From IMG/VR virus record IMGVR_UViG_3300035208_006730: a DNA stretch of 64,000 nucleotides, one strand, 5' to 3'. Positions within the stretch are counted from its first letter, which is position 1. Each line of letters opens with the position of its first letter. Positions 5,098-47,756 of the stretch are shown here, piece after piece. The stretch comes from a virus (taxonomy: Duplodnaviria; Caudoviricetes). Below the pieces are notes generated by a model. The model did not search any database. It was not told the DNA's origin and was given only the letters and a program-made list of their open reading frames with translations. A program made the translations under genes and the position numbers.

Positions 5098-6357
5098 CTA
5101 GACTACAGCGGTAGTGGCAGAAAGAGTAGCGAGATTTGAGCCTGACACATCAATGGTAGCTTGAGCAGGTAGCACGAGTTCATTCGCTGTAACCTTGACG
5201 TTTTTAGCGACTACAGTCTGGAGACCATCATGCAACTGGAACATCGAGTAACGTTCTCTGAGTTTGATTTTGGTCATGTCGTTTTTCGGATCAGTCCACT
5301 CTTCTGTGGTCACTTCTTCGTCAACGACAAGAGCGCCAAGTTCATTCGCATCGCACAAAATCACGTCAGTGAGCATGTTGTCGACATCGAAACGCACGAA
5401 CGGCGAAACGACCATTCGGAATGGGAAACCAAAATAACTTGGAATAGAAGGTGCCGAATTCATTTGCGGATTGTACTCAGTCAGCGCGCTAGGCGTTAAC
5501 GAAGCAGAATTGCCGCCAGGAATAATGGCTTGACCTGCTGTTCCACCGATGCCACCTTGAATGGCACTTTGCCATGCTTGTTGATTGACATTGCCCTGCC
5601 ATCCCTGGAAGAACGAGCCGCCACCAGAGGCAAGAGCGAAAGCGCGCATGATGGGATCTTTAATGAAGGCGACCCACATTAAAGGATGGACGATCATGCA
5701 GTTGGGCACAAAGCCCTGCGTCATCAGAATGGCGAACATATCAAAAATGTCATCCATAATCATGGAGCCGTTACCAGTGCCGTTCAAAGCCCGACCAGTA
5801 GTAGGACCCTTGATTGACGAGGTAGGATTGGTGTTGTCGAAAGCAACAGTACCAGCATTGAGGATCATGTTGGCAACTTTCACTTCTTTCCAACGTGCTA
5901 GAGCTCTACCAGCAGCACGGAGCATCAAACCGATGAGGTCGAATTGAGAATACCTAATCATCTCTTCGCTGACTTTGACGGCCAAACCTGATTTACCAAT
6001 CGTGCAGGTCTTGCTTCCGCTTGCCGTGTCGATTGATTGCTCCTTGTATTCTCCGCTTTCACCGATATCCGAAGCTTCAAAGGCACCAATCGCTCCGTAG
6101 GTGATCGTTTGACCAACTGAATAGTTGATACGAGTCAAGAGAGGAGTGAGGGTAAGAATAGGTTCGATAGCTTCACGAACAATATTCGTAATCACTTTGG
6201 GGAGAAGGGTACTCGCATTGTGCATCGAGATTGCATCCTGAATGGTCCAGGGAGCGCTCTTCGGATGTTCACTATCAATGCCCTTATTCCGCCAAAGCTT
6301 TTCAATCTTTTGCACATCTTCGATAGTGGCGAGATTTTTCTTGTCAGTTGTTTCCAT
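5098..6357 (-). CDS. Major capsid protein (HK97-like fold)
   Basis: 419 aa with LLPKVI..IVREAIEP, IGKSGLAVKVSEEMIRYSQFDLI and KIKLRERY motifs; lies after the protease/scaffold; AGGAGG RBS. Confidence 0.9.
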   Translation of the reverse strand: METTDKKNLATIEDVQKIEKLWRNKGIDSEHPKSAPWTIQDAISMHNASTLLPKVITNIVREAIEPILTLTPLLTRINYSVGQTITYGAIGAFEASDIGESGEYKEQSIDTASGSKTCTIGKSGLAVKVSEEMIRYSQFDLIGLMLRAAGRALARWKEVKVANMILNAGTVAFDNTNPTSSIKGPTTGRALNGTGNGSMIMDDIFDMFAILMTQGFVPNCMIVHPLMWVAFIKDPIMRAFALASGGGSFFQGWQGNVNQQAWQSAIQGGIGGTAGQAIIPGGNSASLTPSALTEYNPQMNSAPSIPSYFGFPFRMVVSPFVRFDVDNMLTDVILCDANELGALVVDEEVTTEEWTDPKNDMTKIKLRERYSMFQLHDGLQTVVAKNVKVTANELVLPAQATIDVSGSNLATLSATTAVV

Positions 6358-30691: not shown

Positions 30692-30834
30692 CCCCTCCCC
30701 AATCTCCCCCCCCTCCAATTATTTTTCGAGAAAACTCTTTAATAACAGGTTTTAAGAATTATTTTTCGAGGATACTAGATAGTAAATAAGTCTATCCCTG
30801 CCCTTTCGTTTTGAGGGGCCGGGGTCGATAAACC

Positions 30835-33662: not shown

Positions 33663-34268
33663 ATGAAATACCTCTACCTTCTCTTCCTCCTTGCAATTAC
33701 ATCTTTCTTAATCGGATGTTCTCCCGTTGCTACAGTATGGAACGCTACGAATTTGGTGAACGCGCCGAAGAATGTCACGTTCTACGGCCTTGACTTCCAA
33801 ACCACTGGCTTCGATGATCGTCATTTCTCCGTCGAGAAAATCGAACAATGCATGCCTCGATGGATGAAGAGTAGTGTCAAGAGGGTGGAAAACGAGTTCA
33901 ACTTCGGTATTAGGGTCAACCTCACTCGAGGAGTAATCAGGGTCGACCAAGAACAACTCTACTTTGAAGTGAGGGAAGAAGAGACACTCAGTAGAGAAAA
34001 ACTTCGCGCCATAACCTCCCAATACATACACCCAGGAGAAGAGGGATTCGGTTACGTTATTCATATATCTTATATGACAAAGAATAAAGGAGTCTTGGGA
34101 TATGGAATCCTATTCTCAAGAGACACAGGTGAGATAATCGTAACTGCTGGAGAGATCTTCGAAGGTGACGGTCATTCACTCTATAGCTTCTATAATGATC
34201 CCTTGGAGAAAATATCCAAGAAAGTTACAAGAAGTATCGCCGTTCTATTCAATCCTCCCTCAGAATAG
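33663..34268 (+). CDS. Lipoprotein
   Basis: MKYLYLLFLLAITSFLIG-C lipobox. Confidence 0.7.
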   Translation: MKYLYLLFLLAITSFLIGCSPVATVWNATNLVNAPKNVTFYGLDFQTTGFDDRHFSVEKIEQCMPRWMKSSVKRVENEFNFGIRVNLTRGVIRVDQEQLYFEVREEETLSREKLRAITSQYIHPGEEGFGYVIHISYMTKNKGVLGYGILFSRDTGEIIVTAGEIFEGDGHSLYSFYNDPLEKISKKVTRSIAVLFNPPSE

Positions 34269-34318
34269 CCCTGTCACCAGCGTAGTTTTATATAACGTCT
34301 TAAATTCAGAGAGAAACA

Positions 34319-34864
34319 ATGCAAAGGCACACCAGTCCCAAACAAATCCCATGCTCAAGATGCGGAAAACTAACTTACATTCAAACGTGTCAAGATTGTA
34401 AAAAGATAATCAAAAAAGAAGAACGACAACTTAAATTAACGAAAAAGAAATTTCTTCAGATTATGAAGAGAAGGATAAAACAACTTTCCCAAACCAACCC
34501 AAAAACCAAGCGCACTCCAAAACTAACAAAATATAATTACATTAAACTTACATCTTTATCTCAAGATGAAAGGGAATTATTTAGTTGTATGTTCAGAAAC
34601 GGCCAAATACCAGAGCACCGTCTTGTCTTGGCAAAATTCTTAAAACGACCTCTCTTAAAAAACGAAATCGTTCATCACATCAACGGAAATAAAAAAGATA
34701 ACAGAATTGAAAACCTTCTGCTCTGTAGAGATTCGACAGAACATCTCTTCATTCATTTGAATAAAGGAGAGCTCGTTCAAAAACTCCTAAGTAGGATTTC
34801 ATATCTCGAATCTCTTCTTCAAGAAAATAACATTGAAATAGCCGCTTTCAACCCCAACCTCTAG
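34319..34864 (+). CDS. HNH homing endonuclease
   Basis: EHRLV...EIVHHINGNKKDNRIENL; N-terminal CxxC pairs. Confidence 0.85.
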   Translation: MQRHTSPKQIPCSRCGKLTYIQTCQDCKKIIKKEERQLKLTKKKFLQIMKRRIKQLSQTNPKTKRTPKLTKYNYIKLTSLSQDERELFSCMFRNGQIPEHRLVLAKFLKRPLLKNEIVHHINGNKKDNRIENLLLCRDSTEHLFIHLNKGELVQKLLSRISYLESLLQENNIEIAAFNPNL

Positions 34865-35216
34865 TGCCACTAAGCAAACCAAAAATGCGGTTTGGTCTCC
34901 AGCCAGAGACACCTTGGTGGCCGAAACCTCCCAAAAACTCCCTAGTGCTAAAATTTAAACGCGCTACCCACCATAAATAGAGGACAAAAATGAACTGGAA
35001 TGAAATATTCCTTGGCTTCCAATTGATGACAGACCTTAAAACAGATGTATACAAACCCGAAGATCCAAATTCAGAAGATCCTTGGACCCCTCCTGAAGAA
35101 TAGCAAGAAATGGAGGAAATTTCAATTAATTAACAGTGACTAATGCCTTCCTATTCCCCAGGAGAAAATAATCGTTTTTTTAGGCCCAAAACCCCCTCTA
35201 ATCGAAGGATCTAAAA

Positions 35217-35492
35217 ATGAACATTGTTCAAAAAACAGATTATCTAGAGATCCTGGATAACAAATTAGAAGTCTTTGCCTATCTAGATAGACTAACTATG
35301 GAACTTCACCTCAGAGAGAAGGAGATAGACCAACTCTCCTTACTCGGAATGCATCCTGAACGACTAATGATCAAGTCAGAAAACGACTTTATTCTCTTGA
35401 TGCTAAACATTCAGGAGGCTTTAAATGGCCTCCCAATAACATTCGAACAACCTACAAAACTTCTGTTCTATCATCAGGAGAGAAAGGAATAA
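35217..35492 (+). CDS. Hypothetical protein
   Basis: AAGGA RBS. Confidence 0.6.
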   Translation: MNIVQKTDYLEILDNKLEVFAYLDRLTMELHLREKEIDQLSLLGMHPERLMIKSENDFILLMLNIQEALNGLPITFEQPTKLLFYHQERKE

Positions 35493-35868
35493 TCTGTCCC
35501 AGTTAGGAGACAGAAATGTTTGAGAGAAAAGAGGACAATAAGTAGAATGGAGTTGATTTGACGGGTTATTTAATGACAGGAAGATACCATTCTTTACCTG
35601 TTAATTCTTCCTCCTCCTCTCCTCTCTCTTTCTATCTCTTCTATTTATCTCTTTACTATCTTTGAAGAATACATTGAAAAGGGTATCAGGGTTTAACGTC
35701 TATAATTGCTCTTTTTGATCTATTAGAGGAAAGAAAAGAGATTTCAATGGTTTATCTAAAGCTCTATTAAAGAGTTATTTTTGTTGAGAATTCTTCCATT
35801 TTTGGATCTTGGAGAATGGGCCGCGAAAAAATCTTTTAATTACCCACTCTTGGGTAGAAAGAATTCCA

Positions 35869-36108
35869 ATGCCAATAACACTGCTAGATGTAGTCAAAGA
35901 ATTCGTCAGCGAAACCTCTATCGATTTGGTCAATTTCGATCTCCTTCATAAACACCTAGCACTCAACATTCTTCCAGACACCGAAGATACCTACACAATT
36001 CGTTTCACAGTCATCGACAAAATCAACGACACACTTCAAAACTTCGAAAAACTCTCGGAAGCAGTTGAAGCTTTTGAAAACCTCCACACAACAAGGAGTA
36101 TCAAATGA
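35869..36108 (+). CDS. Hypothetical protein
   Basis: Start at MPITLL; coupled to the next ORF. Confidence 0.55.
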   Translation: MPITLLDVVKEFVSETSIDLVNFDLLHKHLALNILPDTEDTYTIRFTVIDKINDTLQNFEKLSEAVEAFENLHTTRSIK

Positions 36109-36323
36109 AACGCCTAATCGAAGAATGCCCTTTCCTTTCCTCGTTCACCTTCTTGGATGAAAATTACTACGTCCTTCCGATGACAAAAGGGCAGAAAGAT
36201 GCGATAAAAAGATCTGAAGTAAAAGTCGCATCACTCGACTCGGGAAAAGAAATGTCCATTCCGTTCGGAACGATGGTAACATCCCACTTCAACACTCCAT
36301 GGGAAGAGATGAATCTCAAATGA
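36105..36323 (+). CDS. Hypothetical protein
   Basis: AAGGAG RBS; ATGA overlap. Confidence 0.6.
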   Translation: MKRLIEECPFLSSFTFLDENYYVLPMTKGQKDAIKRSEVKVASLDSGKEMSIPFGTMVTSHFNTPWEEMNLK

Positions 36324-36670
36324 TCAAAATCAAAAATCTCCGAAACTCTAAGCCTTCAGAACCTTGGGATGTCAAAGTCGACAGATCATCTATTCTTGGC
36401 AATCCATACCTAATGCTCAATGAGAGTGAAAGAGAATCAGTCTGTGCTAAATATGAAAAATGGTTCCTAGACATAGTTACAAGTGAAACTACAAACGAAA
36501 AAAGGAAGGAATTCAAAGCAGAACTTCAACGGCTCCGAACGATCTACAAAAAATATGGCAAATTGAATCTATTCTGCTGGTGTGCGCCGAAAAAATGCCA
36601 TGCAGAAACAATTCGTCAATGGGTAAATGGTAGCAGTTGCAACAACTCTTCTCGAACAGAAAGGAACTAA
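36320..36670 (+). CDS. DUF4326-like protein
   Basis: VDRSSILGNPY...LNLFCWCAPKKCHA. Confidence 0.8.
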   Translation: MIKIKNLRNSKPSEPWDVKVDRSSILGNPYLMLNESERESVCAKYEKWFLDIVTSETTNEKRKEFKAELQRLRTIYKKYGKLNLFCWCAPKKCHAETIRQWVNGSSCNNSSRTERN

Positions 36671-37038
36671 AATGAAATACATCCCATTCATCCTTATCGC
36701 TGGTTGGATCATCCTTGCCCTTCTCACAATGGAAACTGGCAACGCAGTAATGTTCATCGACTCAGAAGGAAACTCCTGTTCCTGTCTTTATGAACAAGAA
36801 CTTGTGCCATGCAAAGACCAATCAGAAATCGACTACGTTTATATCGAACAAAATCACTGCTAGGAGAAACCAATGGAAATCTACATTGTATTTGAAGTTT
36901 CCCAGTACGACACCGGTACAGAAATCCACGGAGCGTTTATTTCCCTTGCATCAGCGGAAAAGAAGCGGAATGAAATTAAAGATGGTCTTCTAAACAACAA
37001 CGACGTTCAGATTTGGCCCATCCAATTAGAGGAATAAA

Positions 37039-37542
37039 ATGATCATCATGCTCACTGGTCACCGACCAGAAAAATTAGGAGGCTACAAACCAAACCCAAT
37101 TCAAAACTGGGTAATTGAACAACTCGACGCCCTCCTCAAAAGAGCCCTCCATTCAGATCCAAAAGTCGAAGTTATCTCAGGTATGGCTCTCGGCGCAGAT
37201 CAATGGTGGGCAACTTGTGCAATCCGTCAAGGTATCCCTGTCCACGCGTTTATTCCATTCGAAGGCTATTACTTGAAATGGCCAGAAACTTCCATGGAAA
37301 CCTACAAACAGATCCTTTCTCAATGCGTTGAAGTCAAAATCTGCTGTCCTCCTGGATACCAAGCAGAAAAAATGCAAATCCGTAATGAATTGATGGTCAT
37401 GGCAGCTACTCATCATGTAGCAATTTGGGATGGATCTTCTGGAGGAACGGCAAACGCAGTCAAATACATTAAACAACAAGGTCTGAAATACTACCGAATC
37501 AATCCCATCACCAAAACTCAAGGATGGATCGATCAAAAATGA
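37039..37542 (+). CDS. SLOG-family protein (YspA/DUF1273-like)
   Basis: TGHRPEKLGGY, ISGMALGAD, RNELMV, WDGSSGGTANAV. Confidence 0.85.
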   Translation: MIIMLTGHRPEKLGGYKPNPIQNWVIEQLDALLKRALHSDPKVEVISGMALGADQWWATCAIRQGIPVHAFIPFEGYYLKWPETSMETYKQILSQCVEVKICCPPGYQAEKMQIRNELMVMAATHHVAIWDGSSGGTANAVKYIKQQGLKYYRINPITKTQGWIDQK

Positions 37543-38027
37543 AAACTATCATCTTCTCTCTTCTTCTTTCAGCTTGTTCTCCTTGTAATCTCCAGTCAGG
37601 TATCTGCATTCCAGAAGTAGATGAGGAGATGGTGGATTTCGAAGTTCAGTATTTAAGTTCTGTTTTTGATATTAATCTCTCTGATCTCCTGGAGAATGAA
37701 GGTGTTGAATTGGTTGTGGTTGGCGCGCCAGTAAAAGCAAATAAGTGGAACGCTGGCGGCGTCTACCACAAAGATGAACAAGTTATCATTATCCTCCACA
37801 GAGACGATCCCTTGAATCAGACTCCATGTACCACTTTTTGGGGTACTTTTGGACATGAATTGATTCATTTCGTCTCGATGAATGTCCTAGGCCAAACCTC
37901 AGAACAAAACGTTTCTCACGCCATTCCAAGTCTGTTCTGGGGGTATCCAGAATCAGCATCTTGGACAGTTCAGGGAAACATGCAAAGAGCCACTAGGATT
38001 CAATGTGGCGAAGGAGATGAAGAATGA
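37539..38027 (+). CDS. Lipoprotein with an HExxH metallopeptidase motif
   Basis: LLLSA-C lipobox; GHELIH. Confidence 0.6.
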   Translation: MKTIIFSLLLSACSPCNLQSGICIPEVDEEMVDFEVQYLSSVFDINLSDLLENEGVELVVVGAPVKANKWNAGGVYHKDEQVIIILHRDDPLNQTPCTTFWGTFGHELIHFVSMNVLGQTSEQNVSHAIPSLFWGYPESASWTVQGNMQRATRIQCGEGDEE

Positions 38028-38437
38028 TCCAAGAAATAATCAATCAATGGGAAGCAAACAAACATAAACTTTGTCACTACTTCACCAAAAATCATCCAGG
38101 AAGCTACGAAGAAATCGTTAAAAAAATCTTCGAACTCGTTATCGTTGGTTATGACGCCAAAAAAATCACAAAAATTGACGACGGCGATTACCAAGGAACT
38201 CAAATCTTCCTTATTCCCAAAGACACCTATCAACCAGACATATCAAATTATATCTTCACACACACCTACTATGGCTCTTGCTCGGGATGTGATACTTTAA
38301 AAAGTATTCAAGGTTTTCAAGATAATGATAATCCTCCCAATCAAGAAGAAGTCCAAAAATACATGACATTAGCTCTCCACCTTGTTCAAAAACTCAAGCA
38401 AATGACAGGAGATGACCATGAAGTTCAAGAAGATTGA
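38024..38437 (+). CDS. Conserved phage protein
   Basis: DDGDYQG...YGSCSGCD motif. Confidence 0.7.
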   Translation: MIQEIINQWEANKHKLCHYFTKNHPGSYEEIVKKIFELVIVGYDAKKITKIDDGDYQGTQIFLIPKDTYQPDISNYIFTHTYYGSCSGCDTLKSIQGFQDNDNPPNQEEVQKYMTLALHLVQKLKQMTGDDHEVQED

Positions 38438-38794
38438 TAACACTCCAGTTTCAAATGAAGTTGTTCTGCATGTTGAAATCTTCGTCAAAGGTAAATGGAT
38501 TCAAGATGGCGAAGATAGTTTTAACAAAGCCGAAGCGTTCAATCATCTCTTCAACCTCGCAGATCTGAATCCTTTGAAAAGTGTTCGTCTCATCGAAAAC
38601 GATAAAGTCGTCAAATTCCTCGAGGGAGCTCACCATGTCACTCCATCACCGAAATCCCCGGAAGTTCAAATCAAAAACCGCTTGCAAAACCAAAATTGAT
38701 TGGCAGAAAGAAGTCCAAGAAAAGAAAGAAATCGAAGAAGAAATTGAAGCTCACCTCGATCACCTCCTTTGGGTAGAATCAATGGAGAAAGAAT

Positions 38795-39052
38795 ATGGAA
38801 CAGGTCAATCGCACCTTCGATGAACCAATTAATCAAATGCCCTGCATTCATCGAAAAGAATGCCGGCGCGACTCCCTTCAACTTTTCTCGCCGATAGACT
38901 CCTGCTCTACCTGCCAAGAGTACGTTGAAGACTTTGACGGAGAAGAAAAAGAACTTTCTCCAATTCATTGTCGTCAATGCAATACTCTCTGGCCAAAATC
39001 CGCAATGGATGAAGGTATCTGTCCAGAATGTATGGACAGCATTATCTTCTAG
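38795..39052 (+). CDS. Zn-finger protein
   Basis: Multiple CxxC motifs. Confidence 0.55.
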   Translation: MEQVNRTFDEPINQMPCIHRKECRRDSLQLFSPIDSCSTCQEYVEDFDGEEKELSPIHCRQCNTLWPKSAMDEGICPECMDSIIF

Positions 39053-39060
39053 GAGAACAA

Positions 39061-39540
39061 ATGCGCTATTTCAAAGTAATTTCAATTCTCCAACCAAACC
39101 AAGTGTTTGTATTTACAAGCAATGGCTCAGGTTTTCACGGAGCAGGATCTGCAGCATTTGCAATGTTTGGAAGATCAGATAATTGTTGGAGAGAAATGGG
39201 TCTCGGCAAAATGCCAGATGGCACTCCAGGCCTCTATGCAATAAAGGGATGTGCTAGAGGATTCCAAAAAGGAACTTCTGGCAAATCCTACGCCATCCAA
39301 ACCGTTATCAGACCAGGAGCAAAACGCTCTATCTCCAAAGAGGAACTTATCAAGCAAATCAAAGATCTTTACGTCTATACAAAATTCCACCCAGATTGGG
39401 ATTTTTTAATCGCTGGTTCGCCTCTCAACAAAGCGGGTCTTTCGGGATATAGCGGCCAAGAAATGAAAGACTTGTACTTGTCACTCTCAGTCCCAGAGAA
39501 CGTTCTCTTTCCTGAATCTTGGAACTCAGAATCGAAGTAA
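39061..39540 (+). CDS. A1S_2505-like phage protein
   Basis: VFVFTSN.SG.HGAGSA..A..FG...GKSYAI.T. Confidence 0.75.
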   Translation: MRYFKVISILQPNQVFVFTSNGSGFHGAGSAAFAMFGRSDNCWREMGLGKMPDGTPGLYAIKGCARGFQKGTSGKSYAIQTVIRPGAKRSISKEELIKQIKDLYVYTKFHPDWDFLIAGSPLNKAGLSGYSGQEMKDLYLSLSVPENVLFPESWNSESK

Positions 39541-39579
39541 GTTTCTAAAATTAAATGGCTATTGCCAAAAGGAGATTCT

Positions 39580-39816
39580 ATGGAACCTATCACGATGACT
39601 ACTCTCGTTCTCGTTGCTCTTGGTCTTGATGAAGCTCGTGATTTCGTCAAGGGCGTTACCAAACAAGCCATCGGTCGAGAAATCACCGCAGGCAGTCTTC
39701 TCGGCAGCATCGTCGGCGGCGCAGGTCGAGGTCTCGTTGAACACCTCATTTCCAAACCTGCAAAACAATACGTTGAAACTCCACCCAATGTTCAACCAAA
39801 AGAAGTAGTCGCATGA
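39580..39816 (+). CDS. Small glycine-zipper protein
   Basis: AGGAG RBS; GSLLGSIVGGAG. Confidence 0.55.
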   Translation: MEPITMTTLVLVALGLDEARDFVKGVTKQAIGREITAGSLLGSIVGGAGRGLVEHLISKPAKQYVETPPNVQPKEVVA

Positions 39817-39829
39817 ATCTCTTTACCTC

Positions 39830-40330
39830 TCCACAGCTCAGATCATCTCTATACAGGCAGTGGGGTATCGCACCACGAGTTCTAAAAGTAATTCGTGAGA
39901 CTCCATTGCTCTGGATAGTAAGAGCAAGTGGGATTGAATTTGCTCTCAGAAAACAACCGTTGAAACGGTCCTGAGAGCCGAGCGCAGAGGACAATTGTCT
40001 CTGCAATGAGATTAACCCTCAACGAACCCAAAAGGAATCTAGAATGTTGTAGCTCCGACCTACTAGTGGGATGGATACACTAGAAAATTATTGCGGACTA
40101 CTAAATGAATTGTCATGGCAAGTTAGGCCTCCAGCGCGGAACGTTCTGCCAATCGAGACAAACCTTGCAAATAACAGCTACTGTGTAAGATCCTTGTTCT
40201 AGCCCTTGATCTACACAGAAAGACTCAAAGAGTCAGAGGTAAATCGGCCGAAGGTTAGTCGTGCTTTCCTACCAAAGCCCTAGATTTACCAAAAGAATTC
40301 AGAAGGGTTGACGCTGCAAAACCCTTCACA
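39830..40330 (+). ncRNA. Candidate large structured ncRNA (unassigned)
   Basis: About 500 nt with no credible ORF and at least 8 stems, some with G-U pairs on the plus strand. Confidence 0.6.
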
Positions 40331-40458
40331 AAGGAAAACCATGTTTAATCTCTACAAAAACGGCGAATTCAAATGCTACTAACACTCGGAGTTTCAGTTT
40401 CAGGAGTTATCCTCGGCCTAGCAATTTGCTTCATCCTCCAATATATCGAGGAATCATT

Positions 40459-41226
40459 ATGACAACTTTTAATTTCGGTTTTGGCCCAATACCCGCTCAT
40501 CAACATCCAAATGGAGGTGGTTGGGTAGCGGATACCGCGAAAGTGGATCTAACTGCTTTTGTTGGGGAAAATTGTCAAGTATCCGAAAATGCTTTGGTAT
40601 CCGGAAATGCTCAGGTATCCGGAAATGCTCGGATATCCGGAAATGCTCGGATATCCGAAGATGCTCAGGTATTTGGAAATGCTTGGGTATTCGAAAATGC
40701 TCGGATATTTGGAAATACTCGGGTATCCGAAAATGCTTTGGTATCCGGAAATGCTCAGGTATTTGGAAATGCTCAGGTATTCGAAAATGCTTGGGTATTT
40801 GGAAATGCTCGGGTATTTGGAAATGCTCAGGTATTCAAAAATGCTCGGATATCCGAAGATGCTCAGGTATCCGAAAATGCTCGGGTATCCGGAAATGCTT
40901 GGATATCCGGAGATGCTCAGGTATTTGGAAATGCTCAGGTATCCGGAAATGCTCAGGTATCCAAAAATGCTCAGGTATTCGGAAATGCTCGGGTCCTTGG
41001 TATTCTCCATTCTGGTAATTGGAAGAAATCACCGATATTTATCCAAGGTACTCGAGATTCCATTTCCCAATGTGGACTCGATACCCTTCACATCGGATGT
41101 CAATGTCATTCGATAGAAGAATGGATTCGAGAAGGAACCAATATTGGGAAACAAAACGGATATTCGGAAGAAGAAATTGAAGAATATTTGAAACACATTA
41201 AATACATCCGAAGTTGCATCAAATGA
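40459..41226 (+). CDS. Hexapeptide-repeat (left-handed beta-helix) protein, copy 1
   Basis: 23 units of (S/F)(G/E/K)(N/D)A(Q/R/W)(V/I). Confidence 0.85.
   Translation: MTTFNFGFGPIPAHQHPNGGGWVADTAKVDLTAFVGENCQVSENALVSGNAQVSGNARISGNARISEDAQVFGNAWVFENARIFGNTRVSENALVSGNAQVFGNAQVFENAWVFGNARVFGNAQVFKNARISEDAQVSENARVSGNAWISGDAQVFGNAQVSGNAQVSKNAQVFGNARVLGILHSGNWKKSPIFIQGTRDSISQCGLDTLHIGCQCHSIEEWIREGTNIGKQNGYSEEEIEEYLKHIKYIRSCIK
40579..40995 (+). repeat. 18-nt tandem repeat (about 23 units)
   Basis: Consensus GTATCCGGAAATGCTCAG. Confidence 0.95.
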
Positions 41227-41507
41227 CAAAACAAGAAGCCCAGTTTAAACATCTTCGAGACCGCATCGGCCGAAGATTCGGCATTACACTAACTCCCCAA
41301 CTTCATCAACAAATGATCGAAATGATTCAACAATCCAAAGGAAGATTCGTTGAAGCTCAATCCTCTCGAACAACAGTTTGGGATCTAAACGTCCTGGACA
41401 AAAAGATAAGAGTAGTTTACGATAAAACACGGAAGCAGATCGTTACCTGTTTGTATCCAGAGGATTCACTAGAGTATGCTTTTCTAAATACTCTTTACAG
41501 GTACTAG
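41223..41507 (+). CDS. Hypothetical protein
   Basis: H..RIGRRFG...RVVYDK..IVTCL. Confidence 0.6.
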   Translation: MTKQEAQFKHLRDRIGRRFGITLTPQLHQQMIEMIQQSKGRFVEAQSSRTTVWDLNVLDKKIRVVYDKTRKQIVTCLYPEDSLEYAFLNTLYRY

Positions 41508-42376
41508 ATGCAATTGCCGTTACCATTCATTACTGAAATAACACTGCAAAAACGCTGCACCCAACTCCTCAATTCTTGCCCATCACTCATCCTTCAAAAT
41601 AAAATCGCTGATATCATCTCAAAACCTCATCTTTACCTCTCAGGAGATAAGTCTTTACTCCTGGAGATATTAGAGATATTAAGGAAAGATATTAGTGTTC
41701 TTTTTGAATGGAAAATGGAAGAAATTGATCTTCTCATCAAAACAGCACGGAGAAAAAAATGAAGTGGATGTGGATGCAAATCCAGAATGGATCCATGTAT
41801 TGGTTCGAGAATGAAAATTCTCCACCAATCGAAGTGATACTTGAACATGAACTAGATGACGGCTGGTATCTGAACCAAGACCAAGAAATCATTCCTCTCA
41901 CAAAAGTTCCACCCCCCGCTAGGGGGTAGGGGGCTACTCAACTTCTCTGTCCTAAAGGAGATTTAAAATGAGATCCTGTCGAGAATGTAAACATTTCAAA
42001 ATGGATCTTAAAACCAGGGACACAACTTGTACTTGTCCAATACCTGTCTGGGTAGAAAATTATCTTTCACTACTTCGTTCTCTTTCTTTTCCAACTTTTT
42101 CATCTCCTCGTTCTTTACCAGAAGAAGCAAATGTAGATGAACTTTGTCCTGCATGGCATTCAGAAGATCCTCATAACAATAGTCGTACCTAGGAGAGTCC
42201 AATGAAAATAGATCTCTCAAAAACAGAACAAGAAATAATTATAGATGCTCTCTGTTCACTAATGCTTGATATCACCCGTTGTACAAATCTAGAAACATCA
42301 AAATCAAATAAAGAAATTGATCAAATAATAGCTCTTAAACAACGCATTAGCATTTTAGCTGAAGAAGAAAATTAAA

Positions 42377-42703
42377 ATGAAAAGTCATCATAAAATCCGT
42401 CACAAGATTCTGCGAGCAGATCACAATGAAGAAATAGATAACGTCGTCAGAACAATCTATCCAAATTTCTCAGAATATCTCAAAAAGAATCCTGGGATAG
42501 AAGAAATTGAACTTGAAGTAATGTTTAATCGTGATACCGTCTTTCAACAAGTTCTCAAAGGTATAGGGCACGATAACATTGACTTTGATAAATGTGAATG
42601 TAAATCTCTCAGCCCAATTGCAATGGAAGATCAGATCAGAGCAGATGAAATTCTTCAAAAATATGCATTTGACAACTTTAAAGGAGAAAACGATGAAAAA
42701 TAA
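42377..42703 (+). CDS. Hypothetical protein
   Basis: Co-oriented ORF in a dense small-gene array. Confidence 0.55.
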   Translation: MKSHHKIRHKILRADHNEEIDNVVRTIYPNFSEYLKKNPGIEEIELEVMFNRDTVFQQVLKGIGHDNIDFDKCECKSLSPIAMEDQIRADEILQKYAFDNFKGENDEK

Positions 42704-46897: not shown

Positions 46898-47043
46898 GCC
46901 CGTAACTCAAGCTGGATGAATAATCCTAACAGCTAAAACCTTCTCGCACTACTCTTCAAGAAGGAAAAAGATTCAGAGACTGACCTACTCTGAATTGCCG
47001 GTGACGCTGGAAAATCCGGCTGTTTTTAAAAAAAACAGTTTAG

Positions 47044-47113
47044 GGCAGGGCTTGGCGAGGCGCGGCAGGGCAGGGCGCGGCGGGGCTAGGCATGGCGAGG
47101 CGGGGCGAGGCAA
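47044..47113 (+). repeat. (GGCNN)x14 pentamer tandem repeat
   Basis: 14 consecutive GGCNN units directly 5' of tRNA-His. Confidence 0.9.
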
Positions 47114-47122
47114 GGGTTGTAA

Positions 47123-47196
47123 CCCATCATCGTCTAATGGTAGGACGCTTGACTGTGGATCAAGAAATCTCTGTTCGATCCAGAGTGATGGGACCA
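47123..47196 (+). tRNA. tRNA-His(GTG), atypical acceptor end
   Basis: CCCATCA/TGATGGG acceptor; CTTGA-CTGTGGA-TCAAG; TTCGATC; ends A-CCA. Confidence 0.85.
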
Positions 47197-47198
47197 AA

Positions 47199-47274
47199 GC
47201 AGAAGTAGCTCAATTGGTAGAGCTCTGGCCTTCCAAGTCGGAGGTTGCGGGTTCGAGCCCCGTCTTCTGCTCCA
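47199..47274 (+). tRNA. tRNA-Gly(TCC)
   Basis: GCAGAAG/CTTCTGC acceptor; CTTCCAA anticodon loop; ends T-CCA. Confidence 0.92.
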
Positions 47275-47352
47275 ATTTTCTAGAAAGAACAGCTTTACAG
47301 ACTTGACGGTCTGAAAAGGTTACTAGTCGGTGACGCTGGAAGTCCGACGATT

Positions 47353-47700
47353 TAAAGAAAGATCTGGAAGGTAGGGCTTAAACCCCATCCTTTAAAGAGT
47401 TACGAGTGGAAGAAGATGTTTTGCAAGCGTCTTCAAGCGTCTAGACACCGCATCAAGGGCTAGCGTATAACCACAGGGAAAGGTAGCAATTTTCAGGAAA
47501 CTATATCTGGACCACGTACAAGTTGTTTCTGTCTGGATATAGCTGAGAGAAAATTAAGCCAGGATCACACTGTATGTTCGGCTTGTACGAGAGGAACGCT
47601 GAATTAAGAGTAAAGACATAATAACAGAAAGGTCTAAACTCAAGGCAGTTCAAGATCGCCCTTAGAGCATTTAGCTGATTGCACACCAGATCTTTCTTTA
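47353..47700 (+). ncRNA. Candidate structured RNA with a 23S GTPase-associated-centre-like closing domain
   Basis: 15-bp perfect closing stem; CCATCCTTTAAAGAGT; internal pseudoknot. Confidence 0.7.
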
Positions 47701-47756
47701 CTTTTCTTTTTTCTTTTGGTATTCTAGTCTTTGGATTAGAAACCAAAGGAGATAAG

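Follow-up and report, generated by a model that had tools for sequence, protein, structure and literature searches.

A non-coding gap with recurrent stem-loops in a large environmental tailed phage: a possible modular leader

Stem-loop cassettes (PeSL) were reportedly described by Arbiol et al. in 2010 in the intergenic regions of T4-type phages, and the tRNA region of T4 includes the stable RNAs C and D. Phage hairpins of the boxB/nut type bind protein. Much larger phage RNAs have also been characterized, namely ROOL and GOLLD, which form elaborate multi-stem, pseudoknotted structures supported by covariation and often lie near tRNA islands, with one GOLLD example found downstream of a Met-tRNA; both were resolved by cryo-EM as nanocages (bioRxiv 10.1101/2024.12.08.627333). 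The region considered here lies in a 64-kb stretch of phage DNA (64,000 nt, hereafter the window). It resembles ROOL and GOLLD in being a phage-borne non-coding stretch of hundreds of nucleotides in a phage with tRNA genes, but matches neither of their Rfam models, even at E ≤ 10. The explanation we favor, with a probability of roughly 45%, is a modular leader or spacer whose hairpins would act as signals at the RNA level, in processing, stability, termination, or protein binding.

The phage and its non-coding gap

The window belongs to an uncultivated, myovirus-like tailed phage of ~160-185 kb whose genes are found again on contigs of 159-186 kb, and the same DNA is present in landfill and groundwater metagenomes from four studies. 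Its capsid protein shares ~30% identity with its counterparts in large myoviruses, 0305phi8-36-like ones included. The phage belongs to a large clade known from metagenomes, with contigs of 160-205 kb, in which the nearest capsid homologue is 58% identical. The capsid gene is located at window positions 5098-6357 and has more than 700 homologues at E ≤ 1e-30. Genes of the first 28 kb are on the minus strand, while from 28 kb onwards the window is densely packed with plus-strand genes that are small and for the most part orphans; this arm also contains four tRNAs, a TnpB, and an IscB accompanied by its HEARO RNA. Within this arm, the region of interest and its right boundary were delimited as follows.

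39817-40341, plus strand: non-coding gap of 525 nt, based on codon log-odds, no gene in the ENA assembly, and no Rfam match
40342-40383 (13 aa) and 40373-40462 (29-aa hydrophobic peptide), plus strand: two mini-ORFs at the right boundary of the gap

The left edge of the gap is the stop codon of a 78-aa orphan gene (39580-39816), and the right edge is the first mini-ORF, which is preceded by a ribosome-binding site (AAGGAA) and starts with an ATG at 40342. Using codon-usage log-odds trained on 30 long ORFs of the window, all three plus-strand frames scored negative from ~39790 to 40400, with small ORFs in the gap at -0.12 to -0.33 compared to 0.02-0.41 for neighboring small genes. The longest ORF in the gap (39813-39974, 53 aa) overlaps the upstream stop through an ATGA, also has a negative codon score, and displays neither a Shine-Dalgarno sequence nor a Pfam family; a search against 1.84 billion representative proteins returned only the ORF itself and two repetitive proteins. 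The ~500 nt initially described as free of ORFs are hence ORF-poor, with a codon usage that is non-coding in the plus-strand frames. In a simple gene model with ~114 predicted genes, the stretch 39817-40458 (mini-ORFs included, unscored) is the second-largest gap, the largest (46898-47756) containing two tRNAs and another RNA candidate. Given the negative codon scores, the lack of Pfam matches and real homologues, and the size of the gap, its non-coding status is solid, and we consider region 39817-40341 truly non-coding. GC content is also raised, at 0.46-0.48 vs ~0.40-0.42 in the flanks.

Both mini-ORFs at the right end may be real, their coding status being putative. The 29-codon ORF (40373-40462) overlaps the start of the downstream beta-solenoid gene through an ATGA, is uncalled in the ENA assembly, and may encode a putative small membrane peptide. 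We also considered that the gap could be an intron in a split gene, and rejected this because the 78-aa protein shows no relationship to the N-terminal extension carried by the second beta-solenoid copy.

Local hairpins and fold stability

Every stem listed in the initial annotation was found at its place in the sequence, and the resulting hairpins, along with one alternative pairing, are distributed across the gap.

H1, 39857-39909, plus strand: 10-bp outer stem and 8-bp inner stem (39874-81/39890-97), with three G-U pairs
Alternative pairing, 39906-39946, plus strand: AGAGCAA at 39921-27, with TTGCTCT at both 39906-12 and 39940-46
H2, 39942-39978, plus strand: perfect 8-bp stem around a 5-bp ACCGT/ACGGT stem, with a UGAA loop
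H3, 39984-40005, plus strand: GCAGAG/CTCTGC stem (plus strand -10.5 kcal/mol, minus strand -8.8)
H4, 40049-40101, plus strand: outer stem GTAGCTCCG/CGGACTAC around the conserved core CTAGTG/CACTAG
H4 core, 40058-40083, plus strand: 6-bp CTAGTG/CACTAG stem with a 9-nt loop
H5, 40181-40218, plus strand: 11-bp stem interrupted by a single bulged A, 15-nt loop
H6, 40222-40234, plus strand: GACTC-AAA-GAGTC mini-hairpin
H7, 40238-40290, plus strand: perfect 8-bp stem GGTAAATC/GATTTACC
H8, 40302-40327, plus strand: perfect 8-bp stem, loop motif (T)GACGCTGCAA; the ATG at 40342 follows after 14 nt

Perfect hairpins of at least 8 bp are more frequent here than expected, with three in the region vs ~0.55-0.58 (window mean, 0.55 per 500 nt), and the 3' halves of H7 (AGCCCTAGATTTAC) and H5 (AGCCCTTGATCTAC) are alike. 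The two TTGCTCT copies overlap the 3' arm of H1 and the 5' arm of H2. The initial annotation had taken this as a hint of a switch; AGAGCAA does have these two partners, so that an alternative pairing is possible from the sequence, although a switch would involve 7 nt only.

For the 525-nt plus strand, the predicted fold has an energy of -152.1 kcal/mol (z -3.28), and none of 100 dinucleotide shuffles was as stable, while the minus strand reaches a z of -1.78 on the same type of controls. A description of the region as densely base-paired thus stands when compared to shuffled sequences, but only moderately so when compared to the rest of the genome: 3 of 24 same-length plus-strand windows across the plus arm reach z ≤ -3.3, one of these being a tandem-repeat gene. 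At a resolution of 160 nt, windows in 39841-40080 and 40161-40400 score z about -2 to -2.6, those in the middle (40001-40240) are no better than shuffles (z about 0), and z falls to between -3.3 and -3.7 in coding windows at 38881-39120 and 39201-39360. Fold stability is therefore inside the range of coding windows from the same genome. Robust predicted pairs all belong to local hairpins and are retained in the centroid, and the only long-range pairing of the minimum free energy structure (MFE) is one weak helix of 6-7 AU-rich pairs. No supported long-range helix, junction, or pseudoknot was identified in the MFE or centroid of the region, and 9-nt long-range inverted repeats occurred at chance frequency only.

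Strand preference varies between hairpins. H1 is predicted at -20.2 kcal/mol on the plus strand vs -10.7 on the minus strand, half of its stability being lost because of its G-U pairs, whereas H2 is slightly more stable on the minus strand (-18.1 vs -15.5). The proposal that G-U pairs favor the plus strand accordingly applies to H1 only, since H2 and 40102-40181 are more stable in the minus-strand orientation and the remainder shows no preference. No sigma-70 promoter or U-tract terminator was detected on the plus strand of 39817-40341, so the hairpins are not assignable to standard signals. Separately, the 7-mer ATAACAG occurs at 30742, 40171, 45505, 47621, 59996, and 60142, with 5 of 11 copies in intergenic gaps of the plus arm and one directly before a CRISPR-repeat-like sequence at ~60003. 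This enrichment in gaps was rejected as it fails multiple testing; the 7-mer may still, on statistically weak grounds, belong to a phage promoter or start site.

Relatives, recurrent elements, and what they exclude

Rfam cmscan yielded no match in the region, whether on the whole window at the gathering score or on 39600-40600 at E ≤ 10 with permissive filters, and hence no known family. The initial view that tmRNA, RNase P, and group I signatures are lacking was borne out: Rfam and ARAGORN gave no match in the region to tRNA, tmRNA, RNase P, group I and II introns, or HEARO-omegaRNA. A decayed tRNA cluster was rejected as well, with ARAGORN empty in 39701-40500 even at 80-90% thresholds and no Rfam match. 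A BLASTN search of 50,697 phage records with the region as query returned nothing. From a capsid-protein alignment, we then derived 80 related IMG/VR loci and searched the 25 longest records, of which four are complete. BLASTN against these (capsids at most 58% identical) identified nothing but the 26-nt H4 core, and covariance models of the predicted hairpins in R1 (39857-40005) and R2 (40182-40327) had no hit at E ≤ 1 in the 25 records and no paralogue in the 64-kb window.

Neighboring genes offered no alternative route to a relative of the region. For the 78-aa gene, neither the protein database nor the 25 related phage records contain a counterpart. Homologues of the 170-aa gene upstream (≤ 53% identical) occur in unrelated contexts with no gap after them, and the seven IMG/VR loci found for the downstream beta-solenoid gene are likewise non-syntenic and all lack an upstream gap, nhmmer finding nothing either. 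The lack of any counterpart for both the region and the 78-aa gene fits a fast-evolving accessory spacer. Copies of the region itself, from four studies (2018-2022) and from ENA contig L008, display zero differences in 39000-40488, the flanks being identical too; the six differences found in L008 are all in the repeat gene. There is thus no polymorphism and no sequence variation for covariation, and the searches identified no homologue of the region besides the H4 core. The sequencing runs listed as containing this stretch include none from RNA.

The H4 core is the sole part of the region with a homologue elsewhere. It is identical at 24 of 26 positions to 1501-1526 of locus L213, from IMGVR_UViG_3300011013_000023 (BLASTN, 25 capsid-related records), with an E-value of 4.2e-5 for that record and ~2e-3 when scaled to all 25. 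The corresponding phage belongs to the same capsid clade and is also represented by Ga0114933_10000171 (L222). In L213, the element lies directly 3' of a tRNA-Met (1425-1501), on the same strand, in a ~330-nt non-coding gap. Both differences are in the loop, the stem being identical, and they abolish the ATG of a 43-aa ORF of the window, so that conservation is not explained by this ORF. The core is single-copy in each of the two phages, an exact scan of all IMG/VR contigs found it in the IMGVR_UViG_3300011013_000023 phage alone, and the flanks share nothing beyond the core at either the DNA or protein level. From this sequence match, we take the H4 core to be a genuine 26-nt element that is portable and tied to an RNA gene. 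In the same stretch of L213 (1425-1530), the tRNA-Met encodes its own CCA end, and a 32-codon hydrophobic mini-ORF is found upstream. A pattern search of metagenome and genome collections returned only L222 and a single Saccharibacteria match inside a coding sequence, the latter being dropped given the ~4 chance matches expected in the genome collection.

The second recurrence is internal to this phage and involves the loop of H8. The loop UGACGCUG(G/C)AA is common to three plus-strand hairpins on different stems, all in non-coding gaps, the two others being:

46997-47020, plus strand: second loop-motif hairpin, lying between ssb and tRNA-His, with a GCCGG/CCGGC stem
47326-47348, plus strand: third copy, stem GTCGG/CCGAC, 52 nt after tRNA-Gly

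TGACGCTGSAA has three exact plus-strand copies in the window, each inside a hairpin loop, compared to ~0.06 expected from base counting. While the H8 loop reads (T)GACGCTGCAA, the other two hairpins carry exactly TGACGCTGGAA in their loop. These two flank the tRNA-His/Gly pair, and the one at 47326-47348 lies 5 nt before the 15-bp closing stem of an RNA candidate (47353-47700) that folds with a z of -3.5. H8 combines all the features of this loop-conserved hairpin, i.e. an exact loop, plus-strand orientation, a non-coding gap, and a stem that is free to vary. The 11-mer occurs only at chance level in the 25 related phage records, so the motif is specific to this phage, and a 14-mer of the hairpin gave only scattered single chance matches in IMG/VR. 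Judged by these expectations, the recurrences of the H4 core and of the H8 loop are not chance.

Two further features were noted around these hairpins. Another hairpin is located 2-12 nt before each TGACGCTG(G/C)AA hairpin, and G-rich units resembling GGC(A/G)(A/G)GGC occupy 47040-47115, between the second loop-motif hairpin and tRNA-His, where they could form G-quadruplexes or represent a degenerate short-repeat array.

These recurrences weigh on whether the gap is simply decayed coding sequence or a neutral recombination spacer at a module junction, in which most hairpins would arise by chance. Fold stability within the genome's own range, orphan adjacent genes, the lack of homologues besides the H4 core, and a 10-nt direct repeat bracketing the region would all be compatible with such a spacer. 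However, three perfect stems of at least 8 bp where 0.58 are expected, the two non-random recurrences, and the lack of any protein remnant (the 53-aa ORF matching only itself and repetitive proteins) all point away from it, as does a sequence kept identical across four studies, though so are its flanks. We thus regard decay or neutrality as quite unlikely. The direct repeat itself, ACCAAAAGAA at 39795-39804 and 40288-40297, brackets 483 nt in a manner reminiscent of a target-site duplication, a reading that was rejected since terminal inverted repeats are lacking and chance alone would yield such a repeat about as often.

The orientation of the H4 core next to a tRNA gene also informs two explanations that do not involve a plus-strand RNA. 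One is a minus-strand small RNA of ~130 nt, running from a sigma-70-like promoter (ATGACA-18-AATAAT, 40116-40087, 10/12 matches) to a terminator-like hairpin (39970-39955, followed by GUUUUCU to 39948) situated ~110 nt past the promoter-like site. Both sites are on the same strand at a suitable spacing, the 160-nt windows in 39841-40080 have lower z values on the minus strand (-3.2 to -3.4) than on the plus strand, and H2 is more stable in this orientation. Yet such promoter- and terminator-like matches are no commoner than in shuffled sequences (3-kb scan), the U-tract is inside the larger H2 stem, both H1 and the H4-core orientation in the relative favor the plus strand, and such an RNA would account for just a quarter of the gap, making it the least probable of the explanations weighed here.

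The other explanation is an element acting at the DNA level, i.e. a replication origin, a single-strand initiation site, or a protein-bound DNA site, with the inverted repeats functioning in DNA. Most stems are indeed perfect inverted repeats that are about equal on both strands, the non-coding stretch is long, and the cumulative GC skew of the window has a broad minimum at ~38-42.5 kb, inside the co-directional gene arm. Against this, the region has raised GC and contains neither iterons nor an AT-rich unwinding tract, the fine-scale skew minimum is closer to 42.4 kb than to 40.3 kb and skew tracks gene blocks in this phage, H1 is only half as stable on the minus strand owing to its G-U pairs, and the H4 core is co-oriented with the adjoining tRNA gene in the relative. 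A DNA element thus appears very unlikely. On the plus strand, GC skew is negative at 34-40 kb and positive from ~42.5 kb, with all genes there on the plus strand. A change of sign at the gap within a co-directional arm suggests a boundary between gene modules, and the change over 34000-42500 could reflect either such a boundary or a replication-related switch.

One large RNA, modular signals, and known systems

The remaining question is whether the gap encodes a single new large structured RNA of ~450-520 nt on the plus strand, which might act together with the RNA candidate at 47353-47700. Several of the observations above would suit such an RNA: a 525-nt non-coding stretch with raised GC, a plus strand more stable than any of its shuffles, G-U pairs that stabilize H1 on the plus strand only, and an H8 loop shared with hairpins of a tRNA/RNA locus. 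In addition, H5 (40199-40210) is perfectly complementary over 12 nt to 47452-47463, a hairpin of the other RNA candidate, with ~0.01 such matches expected for these two regions in an estimate made post hoc. The arguments on the other side concern the fold and its evolution, namely long-range pairing limited to 6-7 AU-rich pairs with no supported helix, junction, or pseudoknot, an unremarkable middle (40001-40240), equally or more stable windows elsewhere in the arm, including a tandem-repeat gene, no Rfam match, empty searches for homologues in 25 related phages and for paralogues in the window, and invariant copies that leave no variation for covariation. We thus consider a single large RNA unlikely, and less likely still a new class of ~500-nt hairpin-chain RNA that would be processed at the UGACGCUG(G/C)AA hairpin like tRNAs and whose H5 loop might pair with the 47353-47700 candidate.

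A modular leader fits better with robust pairs that are all local, with an ordinary middle, and with the outside support that H4 and H8 receive near tRNAs. The change in GC skew at the gap, which suggests a module boundary, agrees with it as well. Starting from the non-coding status of the stretch, its hairpins, and the two recurrences, we infer transcription, strand, and function as follows. The stretch would serve as a non-coding leader or spacer particular to this lineage. It separates two blocks of plus-strand genes, with which it is most likely co-transcribed, and would comprise about nine independent local stem-loops instead of one globally folded RNA. At least two of these, the H4 core and H8, would act as discrete portable signals, a form of RNA punctuation serving as sites of processing, stabilization, termination or antitermination, or protein binding. 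Collectively, the hairpins would shape the transcript that feeds the downstream mini-ORFs and beta-solenoid gene, and one or more stable RNA fragments may be released. Importantly, however, H4 and H8 represent just ~50 of 525 nt, the other hairpins are without outside support, and a z of -3.3 with raised GC would equally fit one structured RNA. Overall, the initial interpretation is retained for a non-coding region outside known families with two hairpins tied to RNA gene loci, but not for a single ~500-nt fold, which is less likely than a modular leader and unproven.

If the leader is modular, its value would reside in two small elements and not in a large RNA: a 26-nt hairpin common to two distantly related phages, and a loop-conserved hairpin that marks three non-coding loci. 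Both would be candidate binding or processing sites for a phage or host factor in a large environmental clade of ~160-200-kb phages. Conversely, if the region were one stable RNA, it would constitute a notable new large phage ncRNA without relatives, a status that is not claimable from one invariant sequence.

Compared to known systems, the region carries no defining feature of a named family. A large RNA of the ROOL/GOLLD type, the size class named in the initial annotation, was not supported, given the lack of model matches, of long-range helices, junctions, or pseudoknots, and of covariation; unlike ROOL and GOLLD, the region is a string of local hairpins without relatives. It is also ~5.3 kb from the nearest tRNA (tRNA-Arg, 45677), as opposed to the frequent position of these RNAs near tRNA islands. 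However, the H8 loop recurs at the tRNA-His/Gly locus, and the H4 core located downstream of tRNA-Met in a relative does echo GOLLD. The tRNA link of the region is only indirect.

In contrast to the PeSL cassettes, no promoter consensus is tied to the hairpins, the constant part is a loop and not a promoter box, and there are only three copies in 64 kb of a motif absent above chance from relatives. Similarly, the boxB/nut hairpins differ from those described here, which have loops of 10-14 nt and come with no identified N-like or Q-like protein or boxA. There are also resemblances in both cases. Like PeSL and the T4 RNAs C and D, these are short recurrent stem-loops between small accessory genes and beside phage tRNA genes, and like PeSL they combine a constant with a variable part and would function in transcription or RNA processing instead of through a large fold. 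Like boxB/nut hairpins, the UGACGCUG(G/C)AA hairpins are small, with a conserved loop and a stem free to vary. By analogy, the closest systems in terms of behavior would be the intergenic stem-loops that recur in large phages, along with hairpins that proteins bind in a loop-specific manner.
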